Part shown: piece by piece, positions 9,505-17,596 of the stretch | Numbering within the stretch: position 1 is the first letter of the stretch | How the letters are laid out: every line of letters starts with the position of its first letter | From: Acaryochloris marina S15 | GTDB lineage: Bacteria; Cyanobacteriota; Cyanobacteriia; Thermosynechococcales; Thermosynechococcaceae | Length of the DNA stretch: 32,000 bases | Direction of reading: 5' to 3' | NCBI RefSeq assembly: GCF_018336915.1 | Contig: NZ_CP064923.1 | Location: 4,950,001-4,982,000 of the forward strand | Made by a program: the position numbers and the translations under genes | The notes under the pieces: model-generated | Told to the model about the DNA's origin: nothing | Databases searched by the model: none | Seen by the model: the letters and a program-made list of their open reading frames with translations, nothing else

Positions 9505-10140
9505 TCAACGAGGCCGGAATATTTCTGGTACTTGATGAAATGGAGGGGGCTGGGAGAGATGATCGGCTATGAACGAGCAGGAAAATGCAATGCTAAGGAT
9601 GAAAATAATTCCTCGTCTGATGTTGAGCATCAAATTGTGTTGCTGTCGTACAGTGAGTCGTTGTCTCAAAATGATTCGGAATAAATCACTCCGAGTACGC
9701 TCTACTTCTACCCAGAAGGATATCCAGAAAATTACGAGGATGATGAGCGGTAACACCAATCTATCTTGAGCTGAACCATATTCCATATCCCCCGAAGACA
9801 AAAGCAAAAGGTGGAAGCCATACCAAAAGATAGACCAACACCCAAAAAAGATCAGCACTGAAGGATGTGGGGTAAGGGTTAAATGAATAACGGTGCCCCC
9901 TGAAAATGATTCAAACCGTCCCTTGATGTAAGGTTCGCTGGCATTTGGACGACCGACAGGAATGCGGTTCATCTTAAAACCAGACTGTGTCACTGATCCT
10001 TCATAGGGGGCATGGTTAAGGTCATATGTTGAGCGAAATGTTTTGGGAGGCTCTATTTGGGCTTCCAATCTCTCCATCACTGTTTGCAACGGGTCGGAAG
10101 TTTGAATTACAAAGCGATCGCGAGGTAAAAGGTGAACCAT
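9505..10140 (-). CDS. Membrane protein of unknown family, paralog 1 of 3
   Basis: The start is set at ATG 10140 (MVHLLPRDRF...) by alignment with paralogs 2 and 3. It has a soluble N-terminal domain of about 95 aa, about 3 hydrophobic helices, and a conserved tail PPP..(E/Q)VPE.FR. Confidence 0.65.
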   Translation of the reverse strand: MVHLLPRDRFVIQTSDPLQTVMERLEAQIEPPKTFRSTYDLNHAPYEGSVTQSGFKMNRIPVGRPNASEPYIKGRFESFSGGTVIHLTLTPHPSVLIFFGCWSIFWYGFHLLLLSSGDMEYGSAQDRLVLPLIILVIFWISFWVEVERTRSDLFRIILRQRLTVRQQHNLMLNIRRGIIFILSIAFSCSFIADHLSQPPPFHQVPEIFRPR

Positions 10141-10477
10141 AGATGATCCCTCACTCTTTAAACTTTTAGAAACAACAAATGAATGCCAGTGGGACTGAGC
10201 AGATGCGAAATCGCATGGCATGATTTTTCAGAAGCAGGTCAGTCAAATCGGAGAGCAAACTGAGAGACTGGCCATCTGTATCTAACGTTTTTGCCTGAAG
10301 CAATACTTATCGATCCGTTGGCCCTAGAAGCACTGTCTCTTAAACGATTTGATGCTGGTTTGTCCGCAGCTTTCTTATCAGTGCAGATCGCGATTGAACA
10401 TACTTGCGAGCATGACTTATTCCGTTTAATCGATAAGCTCGGGCACACAGATAACTGGCGGCCCCTATCCATCTCCA

Positions 10478-11104
10478 TTACTGAGACCGGAATGATTCGG
10501 GCACTTCTTTTGCTGGAGGTGGCTCGGAGATATGGGTTGATATCGACAAGAAGGAAAATATGATAACAAAGGCAACACCTTGAAGGAAGAAGAGTTTTTG
10601 GTGCTGATGCTGCCGTGATTTAGGGACTTGACCCACTATCATTTCCAGCAAATCATTATGGCTGCGCTCCACCTCTAACCAAAAACTGATCCAGAAGAGC
10701 CCTAGCATGAATAAGGGCATTCCCAGAGAAAGAAGAGCTACCGTATCGGTTATACTCCCTGAAATCCACATTGATAGAGAAGCGCTGTACCAAAAGAGAG
10801 GCCAAACCACCAAAAAGCTCATGTCGAAAAAGTGGAGTTTCATGGTTATGTGCACTGACGTTCCTCCTAAAGGTGTTTCAAAGTAACCTTCGATGCGGGG
10901 AATAAAAGAGTCGCGGCCCACGGGAATCCGGTGCATCGTAAAGCCTGACTCTGAAACAGATCCTTCATAAGGTGCATGGTTACGGCCAAATGACCGCCTC
11001 AGTGTCTTTGGGGGTTCTAGTTGGGTGTCCAGTCTTGCTATAACAGCTTGCAATGCATCGGGAGTCTGGATAATAAAGCGATCGCGCGGTAAAAGTTGAA
11101 CCAT
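10478..11104 (-). CDS. Membrane protein of unknown family, paralog 2 of 3
   Basis: MVQLLPRDRFIIQTPDALQAVIARL..., same architecture as paralog 1, tail EPPPAKEVPESFRSQ. Confidence 0.7.
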   Translation of the reverse strand: MVQLLPRDRFIIQTPDALQAVIARLDTQLEPPKTLRRSFGRNHAPYEGSVSESGFTMHRIPVGRDSFIPRIEGYFETPLGGTSVHITMKLHFFDMSFLVVWPLFWYSASLSMWISGSITDTVALLSLGMPLFMLGLFWISFWLEVERSHNDLLEMIVGQVPKSRQHQHQKLFFLQGVAFVIIFSFLSISTHISEPPPAKEVPESFRSQ

Positions 11105-11417
11105 AGATGATCACTCACTTTTTAAGTTGTTTGAAACGACACATGAATACCAGTGGTACTGAGCAGGTGTGATGTTGGATGGCATGATTTTCCAGAAATA
11201 GGTCAGTCGAATCGAAGAGCAAACTGAGAGACTGGCCATCTGTACCTAACGTTTTTGACAGATGTAATCCTTATCAATCAGTTGGCCCCATCCTTCAACT
11301 GGCTTGCCCCAGCTTCGATGTAGTGGAGATCGCGATTGAAGATACTTGCGAGCATGACTTATTCCGTTTATCGATAGCTCGGGCACACAGATAACTGGCG
11401 GCCCCTATCCATCTCCA

Positions 11418-12047
11418 TTACTGAGACCGGAATGATTCGGGTACTTCTCTTGCTGGAGGTGGCTCAGAATGGCTGACCATAAATATGAAGGGAAATATAC
11501 CACTGATAACGAAGGCGGTTCCACGCAGGAGGAAGAATTTTTGAAGCCGATGCTGCCGTGACTTAGGAACTTGCCCGACTATGATTTTCAGTAAATCATT
11601 ATGGCTGCGCTCCACCTCAAACCAGAAACTAATCCAGAAGACAAATAACACGAACAAGGGTAATCCTAGGACCAGTAGAGCTTCAGTAGCAGCAACACTC
11701 CCTGAAAGGCAAACTGCTAAAGCGCCGCTGTAAAACAAGAGAAACCACATCACGAGAAAGCTCATGACGAAAGGGTGGAGCTTCATGGTTATGCGCACTA
11801 CAGTTCCCCCTGAAGGTGTCTCAAAATGACCTTTGATCTGGGGGATAAAGGAGTTGCGGCCCTCAGGAATTCGGTGCATTGTAAAACCTGATTCCGAAAT
11901 AGATCCTTCATAAGGTGCGTGGTTACGGTTAAATGACCACCGCAATGCCTTCGGAGGTTCTACATTGGTTTCCAGTCTCGCGATAACAGCTTGCAATGCA
12001 TCGGGAGTCTGGATAATAAAGCGATCGTGCGGTAAAAGATTAACCAT
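11418..12047 (-). CDS. Membrane protein of unknown family, paralog 3 of 3
   Basis: MVNLLPHDRFIIQTPDALQAVIARL..., same architecture as paralog 1, tail EPPPAREVPESFRSQ. Confidence 0.7.
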   Translation of the reverse strand: MVNLLPHDRFIIQTPDALQAVIARLETNVEPPKALRWSFNRNHAPYEGSISESGFTMHRIPEGRNSFIPQIKGHFETPSGGTVVRITMKLHPFVMSFLVMWFLLFYSGALAVCLSGSVAATEALLVLGLPLFVLFVFWISFWFEVERSHNDLLKIIVGQVPKSRQHRLQKFFLLRGTAFVISGIFPFIFMVSHSEPPPAREVPESFRSQ

Positions 12048-12620
12048 AGTTGATCACTCACTTTTAAGTTTTTTGAAACGACAAATTAATGCCAGTGGTG
12101 CTGTACAGGTAGGATTTCAGATGGAATGATTGTCTAGAAACAGATCAGTCAAATCAGAGAGCAGACTGAGAAACTGGGCATCTGACCTTAGATTTCGCGT
12201 CAGAAGCAATACTTTATTACTCAGTCACCCTCATCCGAAGGGTCTCTTCTTAGATTTGATACTGGTTATATCCTGCCAGCCACTGCCTTTCAGTTCTGAT
12301 AGCGGTTAAATTTTCTTGCTATCGCTAGAACAGAGTTTCGATGAGCGGCTTCTTCACTGACATACAAAGAAGTAATCTTTTTTCCTCAGATTGCTTCTTC
12401 AAAATCTATGGTCTAACATTCATGACTTAAATGCAGTGATCGGCATCATATTGTGGGTGTCATCTCAGCTATAACCACCTCAAATGTCTTATGCCAGACA
12501 ATTAGTGGACTTCAATGTGCAGTTTAGTGCCATTTGTACATTCCAGAATTAATGGTTCAGTTGGCTCTTTATTGCTCAATAGTGACTTCTATAGATCTAC
12601 AGATAAAGATCCGTGATTAG

Positions 12621-13073
12621 CTAGGCAGCTTGTGTACCCAAGGTTTTGCAATATTTGCCCATTAAGACAGTAATTTCATTGGGAGTCTGACTAAAGTACA
12701 GTAGCCCCTCATCGACCTGCTGAACTAAGTCATCAAATTGCTTGAAGAACCGTAGGTGTGTGCTGCGTTTTTTGAGTTTCTTCCACAAGAATTCAATTGG
12801 GTTGAAGTCAGGAGAATATGTGGGTAATTGGAAAGGAGTAAGGCGAGCGGATTGCTGGTCAAAGAACTGCTTAGTTGCTTTACTGGTGTGATATCTAGCC
12901 CCGTCCTGAATGAGAATAATATGCTTGTGAGTCTGCTGGAGTACTTGAGTTAGAAAAGCAGTATACCCTTCAGAATTGAAGCGTCCCGTCTGACCTTGAT
13001 AGAAGAACTGACCAGAATGATAATCAATTAATCCAAACACCTTGTAAGCCTTCCGTTTACCACTGGTGGGCAA
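12621..13073 (-). CDS. IS630 transposase, DDE catalytic part (orfB)
   Basis: Contains ...LIQDGARYHTS...LPTYSPDFNPIEFLWKKLK (DDE_3). This frame is open upstream to about 13148 and there reads FGDEASFAQWGSLSYTWSLRGDQPTLPTSGKRK. It therefore joins orfA by a -1 shift near 13146-13150. Confidence 0.85.
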   Translation of the reverse strand: MPTSGKRKAYKVFGLIDYHSGQFFYQGQTGRFNSEGYTAFLTQVLQQTHKHIILIQDGARYHTSKATKQFFDQQSARLTPFQLPTYSPDFNPIEFLWKKLKKRSTHLRFFKQFDDLVQQVDEGLLYFSQTPNEITVLMGKYCKTLGTQAA

Positions 13074-13108
13074 TGTTGGCTGGTCTCCACGAAGACTCCA
13101 GGTGTAGC

Positions 13109-13705
13109 TTAACGACCCCCACTGCGCAAAACTGGCCTCATCCCCAAATAAATTAGGGCATCTTTGGCTGCTGATAAACGCAAAATCTCAGGCCATTTGT
13201 GTGTCATCCATTCTTGTCGCTTGGCTTCATTGAGATGAGCTGCAACAAACCGTGCTCTTTGAAATGAAAAGCCTAAGTTCCTCAGTAGAGTACTCACATA
13301 ATGGGGATGATAGGAAACATTGAAGCGTTTCGCAATCAGGTCTTGAACCATTAATGCACTCCAACAACCACACTCGTATCCAGCTTTGAGCGGACCTGCT
13401 TTAATCCATGACTTGAGCTGTTGTCGTTGCCGTGGAGTGAGTTTGCTGCGACGTCCTTGAGACGCTTTGTATCTAAAGCTAGCGATACCTCGTTTTAGAA
13501 ATGCATGCAGATAATCCCTGATCGTTTGTTCGCCTAGTGCCAATGTTTCAGCTACCTGTGCCACTGAACCACCTTGACCAAGCTGCAATAAAGCACTAAT
13601 ACGTTTGACCAGACGTAAATTCTGACTCCCGTATGCCTGGCGCAGTTTAGCTTCAATCTTTTTGCGTGTTGATTGGGTAAAGCGCAGTTTGAATTGTGCG
13701 AGCAT
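13109..13705 (-). CDS. IS630 transposase, N-terminal HTH part (orfA)
   Basis: IS630-type wHTH regions are present (VAQVAETLALGEQTIRDYL; HYVSTLLRNLGFSFQRAR). It ends ...DALIYLGMRPVLRSGGR*, where intact homologs read ...LIYFGDEASF. Confidence 0.85.
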   Translation of the reverse strand: MLAQFKLRFTQSTRKKIEAKLRQAYGSQNLRLVKRISALLQLGQGGSVAQVAETLALGEQTIRDYLHAFLKRGIASFRYKASQGRRSKLTPRQRQQLKSWIKAGPLKAGYECGCWSALMVQDLIAKRFNVSYHPHYVSTLLRNLGFSFQRARFVAAHLNEAKRQEWMTHKWPEILRLSAAKDALIYLGMRPVLRSGGR

Positions 13706-13943
13706 ACTGGATGACCTCTGATAATCTTGAAATCCTTGCCAGAGCTAAGAGTATCAGGAGCTAGTTACTATATTTAATGAAGATGTAGTGTCGCTAAAAC
13801 CACGGATGCTTTTCTGAAGATCTATAGCTGGGTAATCTGTCAGATAACACTTAACCGAATTATCGCTACAATAGCATCCGCAGTTGATAATTTTTTTGTG
13901 CGGAATAGATGCCGCTGAGCTATATGTTATTGGGTAAGATGAT

Positions 13944-14468
13944 ATGGCTAAGACTCACACAGTGCTTGAAGTATTCATCGCATCTCCTGGTGACGTAACA
14001 CCGGAACGCGAGGTGTTAGCAAACGTTGTTTCGGAATTCAACGTAACTTGGGGCGATAAACATCACGTACGTCTCGACATCGTCAAATGGGAAACACATT
14101 CACACCCTGCATTTGGCGAAGATGCCCAAGATATAATCAACCGCCAAATAGGAGATGTATACGATATCTTTCTAGGCATCATGTGGGGGAAATTCGGAAC
14201 TGCAACTGCACGAGCGGAGTCCGGTACAGAGGAAGAGTTCCAGCGGGCCTACGACCGACTGAAGAAGGGCGATCGAGTTCAAATAATGTTCTACTTTAAG
14301 GACGCCGGAATTCCGCCTAGCAAGATGGACGGAGAGCAGATTGCAAAAGTGCAAGCGTTCAAGAAAACGATCGCCGACGAATATGGCGGACTATATTGGC
14401 CATTTGAAACGACCGACGAATTTCAAACGAAGGCAAGAATACACCTCAGCAAAGTGGTGCAAGACTAG
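13944..14468 (+). CDS. DUF4062-like (TIR / nucleoside-deoxyribosyltransferase-like Rossmannoid) domain protein
   Basis: The pattern VFIASPGDVTPERE ... DIFLGIMWGKFGT ... SGTEEEFQRA ... IMFYFKD matches the DUF4062 signature I remember (vFiSS..D...ER ... D.fv.i.g.rYG ... S.TE.E...A ... v..F.kd). This was not checked by profile search. The ORF ends at TAG 14466-14468. Confidence 0.55.
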   Translation: MAKTHTVLEVFIASPGDVTPEREVLANVVSEFNVTWGDKHHVRLDIVKWETHSHPAFGEDAQDIINRQIGDVYDIFLGIMWGKFGTATARAESGTEEEFQRAYDRLKKGDRVQIMFYFKDAGIPPSKMDGEQIAKVQAFKKTIADEYGGLYWPFETTDEFQTKARIHLSKVVQD

Positions 14469-14600
14469 CTGGAAGCAAATACCGGTGCTATCGAATCAAA
14501 GACAGTTCCGAAAACAGATGAACCGGAAGCTGAAGAATACAACCCGTTAGCGAACTTTTCTGCACTTGATGATCTTGATGTAAATGAGGGCGTCGTTGAC

Positions 14601-15158
14601 TTGGTAGATCGCGGGATCGAGGCATTGTCTGAAGTTGTCCAGATCGTCAACCGAATGGGTGAAGCAATAACTGACCTCGGAGAGAATTTCACTCGGCGCG
14701 CCAAAGAGGTGGAGGCAAGCAACAATAAGACTGATCGAAAATCTGTAGAGCGAGTTGTGAACAATGCTGCCAACGATCTTGAAGTATTTGTTAAACGAAT
14801 GTCTGTGGAAATTCCCGAATTCTACAAACAGAATACAACTTTCGCTGAGTCCTTCAGCAAGATAGCATTGATATCAGAGAAAGATTTCGATGAAAATGTG
14901 GGTAACGTCGAGACTATTCTCAACACTATGCAGATATACCGGACTGCGATGGATAACAGCTCCAAAAATCTTGTTTCGTTTAGACAGCAGATTCTCAATT
15001 TACCTAGAAGAATAAGTACTCTCAATCAAGCCCGCCGGCGAGCTGCGGCAATAATGGATGACTTAGTAGATCAGTTGCGCGTAGCGTCCAGTCAGGCAGG
15101 GGATATTGAGAAGCTGCTCGAACGCTTGCTGAAGCCTAGTGGCAACGACGCACAATAA
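14601..15158 (+). CDS. All-helical / coiled-coil-like protein of unknown function, in frame with the preceding ORF
   Basis: The 185-aa ORF starts at TTG 14601, with GAGGG about 10 nt upstream. It is in the same frame as 13944-14468, and the 44 codons between the TAG and 14601 contain no stop. The charged heptad-like sequence suggests alpha-helices. I recognise no family. Confidence 0.45.
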   Translation: MVDRGIEALSEVVQIVNRMGEAITDLGENFTRRAKEVEASNNKTDRKSVERVVNNAANDLEVFVKRMSVEIPEFYKQNTTFAESFSKIALISEKDFDENVGNVETILNTMQIYRTAMDNSSKNLVSFRQQILNLPRRISTLNQARRRAAAIMDDLVDQLRVASSQAGDIEKLLERLLKPSGNDAQ

Positions 15159-15412
15159 CAACGCAATGAACGCGGAGTCTCTGACCGCGCATGTTTTGAA
15201 TAGAACGATCACACCGATGGCCTGGTGATCGTAGGCGATACGTAATGCGATATTAATTTCGGAAAAGCGTCATATTTAATTGTTGAATGTACGCCATCCG
15301 TGACAATTTGATAATCAGCGGGCAAGGATAGAGCGACATTCTGTTGTGCAGGTGGCAAGACGACAACGCTACTGTAGAGACAGCCATATCTGCCCTGCCA
15401 TGGAGACTGAGC

Positions 15413-16273
15413 ATGAGTAACGACTATACTCCCCCCAAAGTTTGGCAATGGGATTCTGAAAGCGGAGGGACTTGGGCAAAGATCAACCGCCCCATTGCTG
15501 GGCCGACCCATGATCAAGCTCTACCCATTGGAAAACACCCCTTGCAGCTCTATTCCATGGGAACCCCCAACGGCCAAAAAGTCACCATCATGCTAGAAGA
15601 ACTCTTGGCATTAGGTGAGACGGGGGCCGAATATGATGCCCACTTAATCAAAATTGGGGATGGCGACCAGTTCAGCAGCGGATTTGTTGAGGCCAATCCC
15701 AACTCCAAAATTCCAGCCCTTATGGATCACTCCACCTCCAACCCAATCCGCGTCTTTGAATCAGGAGCAATCCTGCTGTATCTAGCAGAAAAATGCGGCC
15801 AGCTCATACCAACAGAGTACGCAGCCCGCACCGAATGTTTATCCTGGCTCTTTTGGCAGATGGGGTCAGCGCCCTATTTGGGGGGTGGGTTTGGTCATTT
15901 TTATAGCTATGCCCCCATCAAAATTGAATACTGCATCAACCGTTTCACCATGGAGGTGAAGCGCCAGCTCGACGTTCTTAATCGTCATCTCGAAACCCAT
16001 CTCTTTATGGCTGGTGACGATTACTCCATTGCCGATATTGCCATCTGGCCTTGGTATGGCGGAGTAATTCGCAATACTCTATACGACGCCGCAGAATTTA
16101 TCGATGCCCCCTCTTATACCCATGTCGTTCAGTGGGCTCAGGAGATAGCCGATCGCCCAGCGGTCCAGCGGGGCCGCATGGTCAACCGGACTTGGGGAGC
16201 CTTGCCAGAACAGCTCCACGAGCGCCATGATGCCAACGATTTCAATACGAGCACGCAGGATAAGCTTAACTAG
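15413..16273 (+). CDS. yghU: Nu-class glutathione S-transferase, YghU family
   Basis: The match to E. coli YghU as I remember it is very close (PPKVWQWD...GKHPLQLYSMGTPNGQKVTIMLEELLALG..GAEYDAHLIKIGDGDQFSSGFVE.NPNSKIPAL...LHERHDA.DF). The start is set at ATG 15413 (MSNDY); the track start at 15344 is an upstream extension. Confidence 0.9.
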   Translation: MSNDYTPPKVWQWDSESGGTWAKINRPIAGPTHDQALPIGKHPLQLYSMGTPNGQKVTIMLEELLALGETGAEYDAHLIKIGDGDQFSSGFVEANPNSKIPALMDHSTSNPIRVFESGAILLYLAEKCGQLIPTEYAARTECLSWLFWQMGSAPYLGGGFGHFYSYAPIKIEYCINRFTMEVKRQLDVLNRHLETHLFMAGDDYSIADIAIWPWYGGVIRNTLYDAAEFIDAPSYTHVVQWAQEIADRPAVQRGRMVNRTWGALPEQLHERHDANDFNTSTQDKLN

Positions 16274-16388: not shown

Positions 16389-16622
16389 ATGAGTGAGCCA
16401 TCCAAGCGTTCAACCATTTACTTTGAGGCAGAGTTGCATCAGGCATTACGCCTCAAAGCAGCATCAACCGATCGCACAGTATCGGATCTAGTCAATGAGG
16501 CAGTCCGTTTTGCCTTACAAGAAGATCAAGCAGATCTGGCTACCTTTGATGAACGAGAACAAGAGCCAACTATGACCTATGAAGAACTGCTAAATGATCT
16601 GAAAACTCATGGCAAACTATAA
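16389..16622 (+). CDS. Type II antitoxin, ribbon-helix-helix type
   Basis: The N-terminal RHH pattern is present (STIYFEAELHQALRLKAASTDRTVSDLVNEAVR). It overlaps the downstream toxin gene by 14 nt. Confidence 0.75.
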   Translation: MSEPSKRSTIYFEAELHQALRLKAASTDRTVSDLVNEAVRFALQEDQADLATFDEREQEPTMTYEELLNDLKTHGKL

Positions 16623-16869
16623 GGTCGTTTTCAAGCGATCAGTTGCCAAAGATCTTCGTCGTATTTCTAACCAGGATGTTGCTAGAATTCTCAGTCGTAT
16701 TGAAGCTCTTGCCCTTGATCCACGGCTAGGAGCGGAAAAACTATCGGGGCAAGAGAAGTATCGCATCCGACAAGGCGTTTACCGGATCATTTACGAGATT
16801 GTCGACAAAGAATTAATCGTAGTTGTTGTTAAAGTGGGCCACAGACGCGATGTGTACAAGAATCGCTAA
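16609..16869 (+). CDS. Type II toxin, RelE/ParE family
   Basis: The 86-aa ORF has the pattern ...KDLRRI...RI...I..L..DP...G.EKL.G...YRIR.G.YRIIYEI.D...IV.VV.VGHRRDVY. Confidence 0.8.
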   Translation: MANYKVVFKRSVAKDLRRISNQDVARILSRIEALALDPRLGAEKLSGQEKYRIRQGVYRIIYEIVDKELIVVVVKVGHRRDVYKNR

Positions 16870-16896: not shown

Positions 16897-17298
16897 GTGA
16901 TGGCTGGAACAGATATTAAAACTCACCCCATTCATCTGGGGTTGAGCGCGACCGCAGAGACTGAACCCTTATTTACGGGGGCGATGGACTGGTACATCGA
17001 CTATGCTAAACGCCATGATGCTGACGGGTCTGAAGGACGTTTAGTCAGCATGCACTCCTTCTCAGACGCTTGGGATGTTTGGGAGATGCACCCGCAGGGG
17101 AGTGAGGTGGTCATGTGTATTGCGGGAACTGTGACCCTTCATCAAGAAGATCCAGAGGGTTCTCTAACGACTACCACTCTTAATCCTGGCGAATATGCCA
17201 TTAACCAGCCGGGTATTTGGCATACCGCCGATGTTGAGGAAGAGGCGACGGTGCTCTTTATTACTGCTGGCATCGGCACCCAACACCGGCCCCGGTAG
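16897..17298 (+). CDS. Cupin domain protein
   Basis: The 133-aa ORF contains a cupin-like core (WEMHPQGSEVVMCIAGTVTL ... PGEYAINQPGIWHTA). Confidence 0.55.
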   Translation: MMAGTDIKTHPIHLGLSATAETEPLFTGAMDWYIDYAKRHDADGSEGRLVSMHSFSDAWDVWEMHPQGSEVVMCIAGTVTLHQEDPEGSLTTTTLNPGEYAINQPGIWHTADVEEEATVLFITAGIGTQHRPR

Positions 17299-17302
17299 AT
17301 CG

Positions 17303-17596
17303 TTGCTTACAACACCTGACTGGCAATCAGGCCCATACCCAAATGCGATCGCACAGCTAGCAGCAGCCAAAGCCGGTCTAGGACTCGCCCGTATCCCCTG
17401 TTTTCTAGGCGATCCAGAACCCACCCTCAAACGAGTTCCTCCCGGTCAGAGTGCCCCCTGCCATGACGTCTGGATTTTGACCCATAAGGATCTAATCTCA
17501 ACGGTACGCATTCAAACTTTTATGGACTGTATGTCCAAAGCCTTTCAACAAAAACAGGACTTATTAGAAGGGCGTTGTCCTTCTACATTTGGTTAG
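17303..17596 (+). pseudogene. C-terminal remnant of a LysR-type regulator (effector-binding domain only)
   Basis: It reads ...AIAQLAAAKAGLGLARIPCFLGDPEPTLKRVPP.....VWILTHKDLISTVRIQTFMDCM, which resembles the last ~90 aa of LTTRs. There is no HTH or N-terminal part upstream; the frame upstream overlaps the cupin gene. Confidence 0.45.

Follow-up and report, generated by a model that had tools for sequence, protein, structure and literature searches.

The window analyzed here, 32,000 nucleotides of contig NZ_CP064923.1 from Acaryochloris marina S15, contains on its plus strand a 174-codon ORF that starts at ATG 13944 and terminates at a TAG codon (14466-14468), beyond which the same frame stays open for a further 229 codons up to TAA 15156-15158. 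The preliminary description of this locus had placed two ORFs in a single frame with this TAG as the sole interruption, which a reading-frame check of the window bears out. It had also put the chance of the 44 stop-free codons preceding the first possible restart, TTG 14601, at roughly 0.1; recomputation from the base composition of the window gives 0.099. The corresponding probability for all 229 codons is ~6e-6, and the continuity of the frame across the TAG is far beyond chance. In the NCBI annotation, the 174-codon ORF is WP_212663159.1, a "DUF4062 domain-containing protein," and part of the downstream half is a separate CDS coding for a 177-aa hypothetical protein, WP_212663161.1. A 1,233-bp IS630-family insertion sequence (IS) lies on the minus strand at 12592-13824, with a candidate promoter-like site (13844-13872) between it and ATG 13944.

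The upstream half (codons 1-174; 13944-14465, plus strand) is a DUF4062 domain, as had been proposed from its motif order. Its match to Pfam PF13271 scores 32 bits, above the gathering threshold of 24.7 (E=1.5e-7, residues 10-102), and it also matches positions 4-169 of the PADLOC profile PDC-S60 (E=2.7e-58); further, PF13271 is matched by all 99 of the 99 family members examined (see below). The AF2 model of an intact homologue displays a five-strand α/β fold spanning residues 6-154, followed by a helix at residues 157-178. The window copy retains F11, the W49-E50 pair, and the invariant motif S93-G-T-E-E-E98-F, in which Glu98 (GAG, 14235-14237, plus strand) is conserved without exception across the 99 homologues. 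Neither the window ORFs nor any of the 99 homologues showed an NTPase domain in Pfam searches, and none of these family members has a second Pfam domain.

The TIR-like, defense-linked nature ascribed earlier to DUF4062 is upheld by two 2026 preprints on Swarozyc and Evangelion, single-gene abortive-infection defenses in which DUF4062 is a TIR-like NADase (bioRxiv 10.64898/2026.05.01.722283; 10.64898/2026.06.25.731849). Because these single-gene defense proteins already combine DUF4062 with an auxiliary (AUX) domain, the description of the module as undescribed no longer holds. Defense by the Swarozyc protein KpSwz requires both E97 and the AUX domain (Osinski et al. 2026, bioRxiv 10.64898/2026.05.01.722283), and defense by the Evangelion protein Eva01 is lost in the variants L177*, W162A, and W162F (Ibarra-Chavez et al. 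2026, bioRxiv 10.64898/2026.06.25.731849). In a search of the PDB with a profile of the N domain from our family, KpSwz was the top match and the sole one naming a related protein (E=0.031, N domain only). The SGTEEEF segment of the profile aligns with SFTEKAF of KpSwz chain 10wc_A, a weak alignment at that E value and one in which 10wc_A is the E97A cryo-EM construct, its Ala being taken as residue 97 from an inferred index offset. We accordingly treat Glu98 as a predicted catalytic glutamate, at the presumed catalytic-Glu position of KpSwz. F11 and W49-E50 are conserved in the family and, judged by position rather than by alignment, may correspond to motifs of Eva01.

Codons 176 to 216 (14469-14591, plus strand) code for an acidic, Pro-rich linker, whose peptide had been quoted correctly in the preliminary description and which is predicted to be disordered, with residues 181-197 of the intact-homologue model having a pLDDT of <50. 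Its length varies among homologues, with a repeat expansion in P0114, and it holds a conserved PLANL motif that reads PLANF in the window copy. The remainder of the frame (codons 217-404 plus the TAA stop; 14592-15158, plus strand) is the remnant of the AUX domain, for which AF2 models four long helices with a pLDDT of 84.8 and a pTM of 0.76. This half is confidently predicted to be an all-helical four-helix domain of about 190 aa that belongs to no recognized family, in keeping with the earlier characterization of it as a helical region of no known family lacking an NTPase. The AUX domain has no match in Pfam, the PDB, or BFVD (viral), and a profile search of the PDB with the C domain did not recover KpSwz. 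Likewise, Foldseek comparison of the AUX model with the PDB and BFVD returned nothing at E<=0.001, the PDB library being that of April 2026, which may predate the KpSwz entries. In PADLOC, the C half has no match to PDC-S60.

Several weaker resemblances were considered and rejected. ClyA-type pore-forming toxins (AhlC, XaxB, Hbl-B, and SmhB) recur as weak Foldseek matches of the AUX model, with TM<=0.39 and an RMSD of >20 Å, which we treat as generic long-helix similarity and not as evidence for pore formation. The whole two-domain model yielded just generic flavodoxin-like and dynamin/Mx-stalk matches at TM<0.26, and these were discarded. Weak matches of the C half to ZorA (PADLOC, 6e-5), GldL, IcmG, a methyl-accepting chemotaxis protein, and designed bundles were set aside as coiled-coil noise.

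A query bridged across the TAG retrieved 213 homologues, nearly all of them about 400 aa long and uninterrupted, the best being 76% identical; the question of whether the two halves are fused or occur as two genes elsewhere is thus answered in favor of fusion. Among near-full-length copies in species-representative genomes, 66 of 71 are intact and 5 of 71 are inactivated. A profile of the AUX domain matches 1,574 clusters. In the 150 best of these matches, the full-length proteins have AUX located behind DUF4062, and AUX joined to other effector domains was not found. The AUX-only ORFs examined elsewhere are remnants produced by frameshifts, IS truncation, or contig edges. These observations bear on the earlier suggestion of a genuine two-gene effector-plus-partner module, with the C half translated alone from TTG 14601 or a nearby start. 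The separate 177-aa CDS in the NCBI annotation and a GAGG sequence ~10 nt upstream of the TTG would be consistent with it, but this TTG is merely the codon of the conserved Leu220, and a start there would omit the conserved segment from PLANL to G216. With the homologues being fusions, the solitary AUX ORFs being remnants, and the C half having lost constraint and conserved residues as detailed below, we find a two-gene module barely credible.

The TAG codon (14466-14468, plus strand) lies at the junction of DUF4062 and AUX, at the position of the codon for Trp175, a residue present in at least 90% of the 99 homologues. A tryptophan at this junction is also described in KpSwz (W176) and is essential in Eva01 (W162) (bioRxiv 10.64898/2026.05.01.722283; 10.64898/2026.06.25.731849). 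Codon 175 is TGG in all five of the genes compared (L006, L002, L005, L007, and L009), and the codon comparison indicates that the TAG arose by a single G-to-A transition from TGG. That a single base separates the TAG from its ancestral codon would also suit an error of sequencing or assembly, or a mutation acquired in the laboratory, the natural gene being intact. However, a stretch of 2,031 bases including the TAG recurs at 100% identity in another public assembly (Logan SRR12447961), although that read set may stem from the same strain, and a base-calling error would not explain decay of the C half spanning many substitutions. We consider an artifactual or laboratory origin of the TAG highly improbable.

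The evidence for decay comes from patterns of substitution on the two sides of the TAG. Comparison of the window copy with L006, a syntenic Acaryochloris metagenome copy, gives an omega of 0.17 for codons 1-174 and 0.54 for codons 217-404. Changes polarized to the window branch amount to 4 nonsynonymous and 8 synonymous (4N:8S) upstream of the TAG versus 33N:6S downstream (Fisher p=0.0014), the counts being small and the synonymous changes having been polarized with distant outgroups (dS ~0.76). Among residues conserved in at least 90% of homologues, window-specific losses affect 0 of 73 upstream and 4 of 27 downstream (hypergeometric p ~0.0045), namely, L205F in the PLANL motif of the linker, K269E, T357I, and F360L. 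Judged by these patterns, constraint on the region past the TAG is lost on the window lineage, and the C half appears to be decaying. As this decay spans many substitutions, the stop is probably not very recent.

Each of the three sampled Acaryochloris alleles is interrupted by one nonsense codon, different in each case, and none has an indel: the TAG of the window copy, a TGA at codon 101 in L006, and a TAA at codon 48 in L085, likewise a syntenic metagenome copy. The last of these is uncertain as a third independent nonsense allele, since it is found on a contig with 2x coverage in which other genes also look split, and it is possibly an assembly error. Readthrough of the TAG was also among the initial proposals; in a programmed or suppressor-mediated form, it would yield a functional full-length protein. 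The 229 codons open beyond the TAG would permit this, and the stop is followed by a C, which is a comparatively weak termination context in E. coli. In a recoding gene, however, the position of the stop would be expected to be shared, whereas here it is unique to the window copy, being absent from all homologues, falls on a conserved Trp codon changed by one transition, and is not matched by the related copies, which stop at other codons. Further, constraint downstream is lost (33N:6S), and there is no suppressor tRNA within the window, in which the sole tRNA is a tRNA-Pro. Low-level readthrough may occur in the window strain, but readthrough as the means of making a functional protein seems extremely unlikely.

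A different reading of the same counts is that the sensor-less 174-aa DUF4062 fragment is expressed and selected, for instance as a modulator or as an NADase that acts alone or under different regulation, with the AUX half alone being a pseudogene. The 4N:8S ratio of codons 1-174 differs from neutrality (binomial p=0.0009), but the reservations about small counts and distant outgroups apply to it as well. The neutral-looking downstream part suggests that much of the branch postdates the stop, yet a recent stop preceded by faster evolution of AUX would also give such a pattern. Although F11, W49-E50, and E98 are intact and none of the conserved residues of the N half has been lost specifically in the window copy, this copy lacks the junction Trp. 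The isolated DUF4062 domain of TEP1 is catalytically active in vitro (2026 DUF4062 preprints), whereas truncations of AUX abolish defense by both Eva01 and KpSwz. The promoter-like site upstream of the ATG could support expression of such a fragment. The sister copies L006 and L085 are, however, stopped within the DUF4062 domain itself, which implies that the Acaryochloris lineage does not generally preserve this domain. We therefore consider selective retention of the fragment to be quite unlikely, while noting that the truncated protein might not be inert, since codons 1-174 appear to have remained under constraint along that branch.

On the basis of the fused homologues, the ancestral TGG, and the decay downstream, we hold it very probable that 13944-15158 is one gene of about 404 codons that was pseudogenized and cut in two by a TGG-to-TAG change. 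This is the reading of the preliminary description in which a single gene was inactivated by a nonsense mutation, and it calls for a change in the annotation, in which WP_212663159.1 and WP_212663161.1 would become two fragments of a single pseudogene rather than a domain protein and a hypothetical protein.

The IS630-family element ends 119 bp upstream of ATG 13944. It has visible terminal inverted repeats, sits between the two copies of a duplicated TA target (12590-12591 and 13825-13826), and contains a transposase with Pfam HTH_33/HTH_29/HTH_32 and DDE_3 domains that is split into two ORFs (13109-13705 and 12621-13073). The orthologous locus in L006 lacks the element and has the empty site CTTC-TA-GCTGGG, which indicates that the IS630 is a later insertion beside the gene and did not bring the gene in. 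The preliminary description had located the gene next to an IS630 on a compositionally foreign segment; the IS630 is real, but the GC content across the locus (0.45-0.465) falls within the range of the window (0.39-0.53). By comparison with other A. marina genomes, the gene and the IS630 lie in a strain-variable segment (12476-15317) comprising a ~1.6-kb DUF4062 gene cassette and the IS. A. marina MBIC11017 and AP026075 both lack this segment, and in the "Moss Beach" strain the gene is likewise missing. In MBIC11017, the flanks matching the window up to 12475 and from 15318 onward are just ~60 bp apart, and tblastn detected no remnant of the gene there. The gene is accessory and was probably acquired horizontally.

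The family as a whole is large and widely dispersed, with at least 860 clusters at 50% identity matching at E<=1e-10 in numerous bacterial phyla and in at least one archaeon; the closest intact relatives of the window gene are from planctomycetes. No conserved partner gene emerged when 425 flanking ORFs from ~78 loci were clustered, as no cluster covered more than 3 loci. Searches of phage genomes gave no family match. Across 72,556 plasmids, the helical AUX domain was found on none, the matches there being made via the N domain and covering <=50% of the query; this domain is BLAST-detectably related to plasmid DUF4062 genes, mostly from Enterococcus. Integrases adjoin P0001 and the Mariniblastus homologue P0005, two of the three contexts having Pfam annotation. 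As to the suggestion that homologues might reside in defense islands, only a handful of the 150 immediate neighbors match defense models (PD-Lambda-2_B, PDC-S04, TIR-TM, mad3/6, PD-T4-6, MkoA, and PIN), but most are housekeeping genes, and the defense-island signal is modest.

By analogy with the characterized systems, we infer NADase activity and a role in defense for the family and a sensing function for its AUX domain, the intact protein most likely being a single-gene abortive-infection defense. The gene would code, from N to C terminus, for a TIR-like NADase domain, a disordered linker, and a four-helix AUX domain. The AUX domain might hold the NADase in an autoinhibited state and detect a cue of infection, upon which oligomerization would switch on the DUF4062 domain and lead to hydrolysis of NAD+. 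In the window copy, translation from the native start would yield the catalytic domain but no longer the linker or AUX. As loss of AUX abolishes defense in both experimental systems, this copy is predicted to be dead for defense. A more elaborate scenario is that the NADase gene was repeatedly switched off in Acaryochloris by selection and not drift, that the catalytic fragment of the window copy is kept by purifying selection, without its sensor, for a new or residual function, and that the intact family is a large defense lineage whose four-helix AUX senses a trigger unlike the portal (Swarozyc) or recombination proteins (Evangelion). Taken as a whole, we regard this scenario as unlikely.

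Beyond the fate of a single gene, the analysis delineates a large DUF4062 clade with a specific four-helix auxiliary domain, for which a literature search found no characterizing study. Should DUF4062-AUX proteins prove to be modular sensors linked to an NADase, members of this clade would be expected to recognize a new infection cue. Recurrent inactivation, as seen in 5 of the 71 species representatives, the three Acaryochloris alleles, and the remnants derived from IS insertion and frameshifts, offers a small natural sample for studying what abortive-infection genes cost and how they turn over.

Among the known systems, Swarozyc KpSwz (PDB 10wc, 11cq, and 11cv) shares with the family the N-terminal DUF4062 core with its conserved Glu (E98 in the family, E97 in KpSwz), a Trp where the core meets the helical stalk (W175 and W176, respectively), a C-terminal auxiliary domain within the same polypeptide, and a single-gene state without a fixed partner, combined with a patchy, horizontally transferred distribution. 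Sequence similarity between the two is nevertheless marginal and confined to the core (E=0.031). Further, KpSwz is a 326-aa protein with an HTH/winged-helix AUX domain that binds the phage portal, whereas the AUX domain of the family is a ~190-aa four-helix bundle situated behind a disordered acidic linker, and the window copy ends before AUX altogether. The family therefore falls outside a narrow, KpSwz-like definition of Swarozyc, and because the AUX folds differ, its trigger probably differs from that of KpSwz as well.

Evangelion follows the same single-gene plan, in which a conserved DUF4062 core is joined to an AUX that is specific to the lineage and needed for defense. Eva01 and the family may correspond, by position only, in F11, in the W-E pair (W49-E50 here and W51-E52 in Eva01), in the catalytic Glu, and in the junction Trp (W175 and W162, respectively). 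Eva01 differs in having a short AUX, in being plasmid borne in firmicutes, and in its link to phage recombination proteins. PADLOC PDC-S60, which went unmentioned in the literature found by our search, is a 906-position profile of which only positions 4-169 are shared, the remaining ~740 being unmatched by the C half. The STAND/NACHT proteins (TEP1, NWD1/2, NPHP3, and bacterial TEP1-like proteins) have the DUF4062 effector domain in common with the family, which is distinguished from them by its lack of NTPase, TROVE, and WD40 domains. The AUX fold of the family is unlike those of both characterized systems. The junction Trp and the AUX domain in the same polypeptide, features of Swarozyc and Evangelion, are present in intact family members and are both lost in the window copy. 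The window gene is hence a member, from an uncharacterized sensor-domain lineage, of a known kind of defense gene, now pseudogenized.

The DUF4062 half of the locus is a 174-codon open reading frame that runs from an ATG at 13944 to a TAG at 14466-14468, and past this TAG the frame is uninterrupted for 229 further codons, up to a TAA at 15156-15158. The earliest candidate for a restart after the TAG is a TTG at 14601, and re-reading of the coordinates found this layout to be accurate as given in the preliminary description. Under the base composition of the window, the chance probability of 44 stop-free codons is 0.099 and that of 229 is ~6e-6; the continuity of the longer stretch is therefore not accidental. 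In RefSeq, the two halves on this 5.88-Mb Acaryochloris marina chromosome are entered as separate normal CDSs, not as one pseudogene (WP_212663159.1, 174 aa, "DUF4062 domain-containing protein," for the N-terminal half; WP_212663161.1, 177 aa, "hypothetical protein," for the C-terminal half).

A query bridging the TAG recovered 213 homologs, nearly all of them uninterrupted proteins of ~400 aa at 98 to 100% query coverage, with the top match (76% identity) coming from a Planctomycetaceae genome. At the position of the TAG, at least 90% of the homologs have a Trp in the context VVQDWL (alignments of 25 and 99 sequences), and all five genes compared use TGG there; in the window, a single G-to-A change has therefore produced the nonsense mutation W175*. 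Judged from these alignments, 13944-15158 is one gene rather than two. The family is scattered over Planctomycetota, Cyanobacteria, Chloroflexota, Acidobacteriota, Pseudomonadota, Bacteroidota, Bacillota, and a Methanosaeta genome, a patchiness that is typical of horizontal spread.

The assignment of the N-terminal half to DUF4062, made earlier from motif order, was right: it scores 32 bits against the Pfam model (gathering score, 24.7) and matches the first 169 of the 906 positions of the PADLOC candidate profile PDC-S60 (E = 2.7e-58). DUF4062 is present in 99 of 99 family members; none of these has a second Pfam domain, and an NTPase is absent. An AlphaFold2 model of the closest intact homolog (mean pLDDT, 76.9) consists of a five-stranded α/β domain (residues 6 to 154), a long helix (157 to 178), a disordered linker (181 to 202), and four long helices (217 to 396). 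Comparison of the N-domain profile with solved structures gave as its top match, and the only one naming a related protein, chain 10wc_A of the Swarozyc protein KpSwz, a weak hit (E = 0.031) in which the family-invariant SGTEEEF is aligned on SFTEKAF of KpSwz. The construct solved was an E97A mutant (10.64898/2026.05.01.722283), and we take the Ala of SFTEKAF to be residue 97, the numbering offset being our own; on this alignment, Glu98 (14235-14237) is the predicted catalytic residue. F11 and W49-E50 are likewise present in the N-terminal half of the window and conserved in the family. The TAG deletes the junction Trp together with all of the sequence beyond it.

Modeled alone, the C-terminal half, or auxiliary (AUX) region, forms a confident four-helix domain (pLDDT, 84.8; pTM, 0.76). 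It matched no Pfam family, had no relatives among PDB sequences, and had no specific structural match in PDB or BFVD, where the best hits (E = 0.047 and 0.023) were set aside as generic long-helix bundles. An AUX profile searched against a library of 1.84 billion proteins matched 1,574 clusters at 50% identity, 860 of them with an E value of 1e-10 or better. In the best 150 of these clusters, the full-length proteins have the layout DUF4062-linker-AUX, are about 385 to 420 aa long, and carry the AUX at about residues 200 to 400; longer exceptions retain DUF4062 and are extended at the N or C terminus or have a linker enlarged by repeats. In one homolog, P0114 (547 aa), the linker is enlarged by four tandem 22-residue Pro/Thr-rich units (PETAKTPTTPPAPASTGTSMAD), an expansion which shows that the linker is a spacer tolerant of changes in length. 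Short "AUX-only" proteins, where they could be placed, are remnants, including a frameshift-split copy of 179 + 231 aa, a copy directly 3' of an IS4-type DDE transposase, and others at contig starts. Since the AUX of the full-length proteins among these 150 lies behind DUF4062 and the AUX-only forms that could be placed are remnants, this region belongs to DUF4062 as a dedicated partner domain and does not constitute a gene by itself.

Between the window and L006, a metagenomic Acaryochloris-type contig, dN/dS is 0.17 for codons 1 to 174 and 0.54 for codons 217 to 404. With changes polarized by four outgroups, 4 nonsynonymous and 8 synonymous changes fall upstream of the TAG on the window branch, compared with 33 nonsynonymous and 6 synonymous ones downstream (Fisher P = 0.0014), and no such contrast is seen on the L006 branch. 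Of the residues conserved at ≥90%, the window alone has lost none of the 73 upstream of the TAG and 4 of the 27 downstream of it (L205F, K269E, T357I, and F360L; hypergeometric P ~0.0045, our own calculation). Thus, the C-terminal half evolves as untranslated DNA, which speaks against a functional partner gene, a mere base-calling error, and the functional readthrough that had been considered for the TAG. A 2,031-bp contig in Logan assembly SRR12447961 is 100% identical to 13801-15831, TAG included, its reads possibly deriving from the same strain. Constraint still seems to act on the upstream half (binomial P = 0.0009 against neutrality); the DUF4062 fragment could still be in use, or small counts and imperfect polarization could account for the signal.

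Clustering of 425 flanking ORFs from about 78 genomes of many phyla revealed no conserved partner, no family occurring in more than three loci. The two-gene module considered in the preliminary description is not borne out, given that homologs are fused, AUX-only forms that could be placed are remnants, and the C-terminal half is decaying. Immediate neighbors at 44 loci are mixed; they include two PIN proteins and a handful of matches to defense models (PD-Lambda-2_B, PDC-S04, TIR-TM, mad3/mad6, PD-T4-6, and MkoA). Integrases adjoin the gene in two of the three contexts carrying Pfam annotation. A search of phage genomes found no carrier, and plasmids yielded matches through the DUF4062 domain only, not the full gene.

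The gene is absent from the syntenic site in A. marina MBIC11017, in AP026075, and in Acaryochloris sp. "Moss Beach," which makes it an accessory cassette of roughly 1.6 kb. The MBIC11017 flanks, corresponding to the window up to 12475 and from 15318 on, are separated by only ~60 bp, with no detectable remnant of the gene. In "Moss Beach," a 430-aa DAGK_cat/YegS-like gene (L092:15981-17273) occupies the same inter-flank position, a site at which accessory genes may insert preferentially. Two metagenomic Acaryochloris-type contigs carry syntenic orthologs with about 89% nucleotide identity, differing from each other at 13 of 1,209 bases. The copy at L006:259-1470 has Trp175 intact and a TGA at codon 101, an Arg codon (CGN) in other genes; that at L085:3036-4247 has codons 101 and 175 intact and a TAA at codon 48, which is AAA in the other two Acaryochloris copies. 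Each of the three sampled alleles thus has a single nonsense codon of its own, at a different position, and none has an indel; the L085 stop may be an error, as this contig has only 2x coverage and other genes on it also look split. Among 71 near-full-length copies in species-representative genomes, 5 are disrupted. Broken copies in unrelated bacteria (L020, L022, L026, L061, L086:240-1428, and L087:1798-3618) show in-frame stops, frame changes, a frameshift split, and an AUX-only remnant.

An IS630-family element at 12592-13824 (minus strand), flanked by a TA target duplication and carrying imperfect 24-bp terminal inverted repeats, lies 119 bp upstream of the ATG. Its transposase lies in two ORFs of 198 aa (HTH_33/29/32) and 150 aa (DDE_3 from profile position 31), reflecting either a programmed frameshift or a degenerate copy. 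L006 has the empty site without this element; the IS630 thus landed beside the gene and did not carry it in. At 17339-17342, the window lacks ~1.65 kb present in MBIC11017, "Moss Beach," and L085; the missing segment holds genes for a MAPEG protein and a polyketide-cyclase-like protein as well as the N-terminal portion of a LysR regulator, and of this regulator only a substrate-domain remnant is left (ORF 17195-17596). This loss, the IS insertion, and the nonsense codon mark the neighborhood as a zone of gene decay. An RHH antitoxin-ParE toxin pair at 16389-16869 (plus strand) is shared with L085 and MBIC11017 and absent from L006 and "Moss Beach," where 16268 is joined straight to about 16886; it is thus a strain-variable toxin-antitoxin cassette. 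Three tandem paralogous ORFs of 208 to 238 aa at 9505-12047 (minus strand), with hydrophobic C-terminal halves and no Pfam family, vary in count and order across Acaryochloris strains.

With its DUF4062 domain, conserved active-site residue, fusion layout, single-gene status, and truncation, the locus is a pseudogenized member of an already described kind of defense gene; new are only the uncharacterized AUX lineage and the recurrent inactivation. DUF4062 has been shown to be a TIR-like NADase, and Klebsiella KpSwz ("Swarozyc"), a single-gene system, acts by abortive infection and depends on both the catalytic E97 and a C-terminal AUX, an HTH/winged-helix domain that binds the phage portal, with W176 at the meeting point of the core and a helical stalk (Osinski et al., 10.64898/2026.05.01.722283). 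The name "Evangelion" was given to single-gene systems, Eva01 among them, in which the DUF4062 core is conserved and the AUX has diversified (Ibarra-Chavez et al., 10.64898/2026.06.25.731849). On the model of KpSwz and Eva01, the intact protein would be an autoinhibited NADase whose AUX would sense an infection-associated cue and drive oligomeric activation, upon which NAD+ depletion would abort infection; on the same model, the window product, devoid of the AUX and the junction Trp, should not defend. F11 and W51-E52 of Eva01 occupy nearly the same positions as F11 and W49-E50 here, a correspondence by position only, and with the 906-position PDC-S60 the N-terminal half shares only the first 169 positions. 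KpSwz is triggered by the portal and Eva01 by a recombination-associated cue, whereas the four-helix AUX of the present family probably senses a cue different from both.
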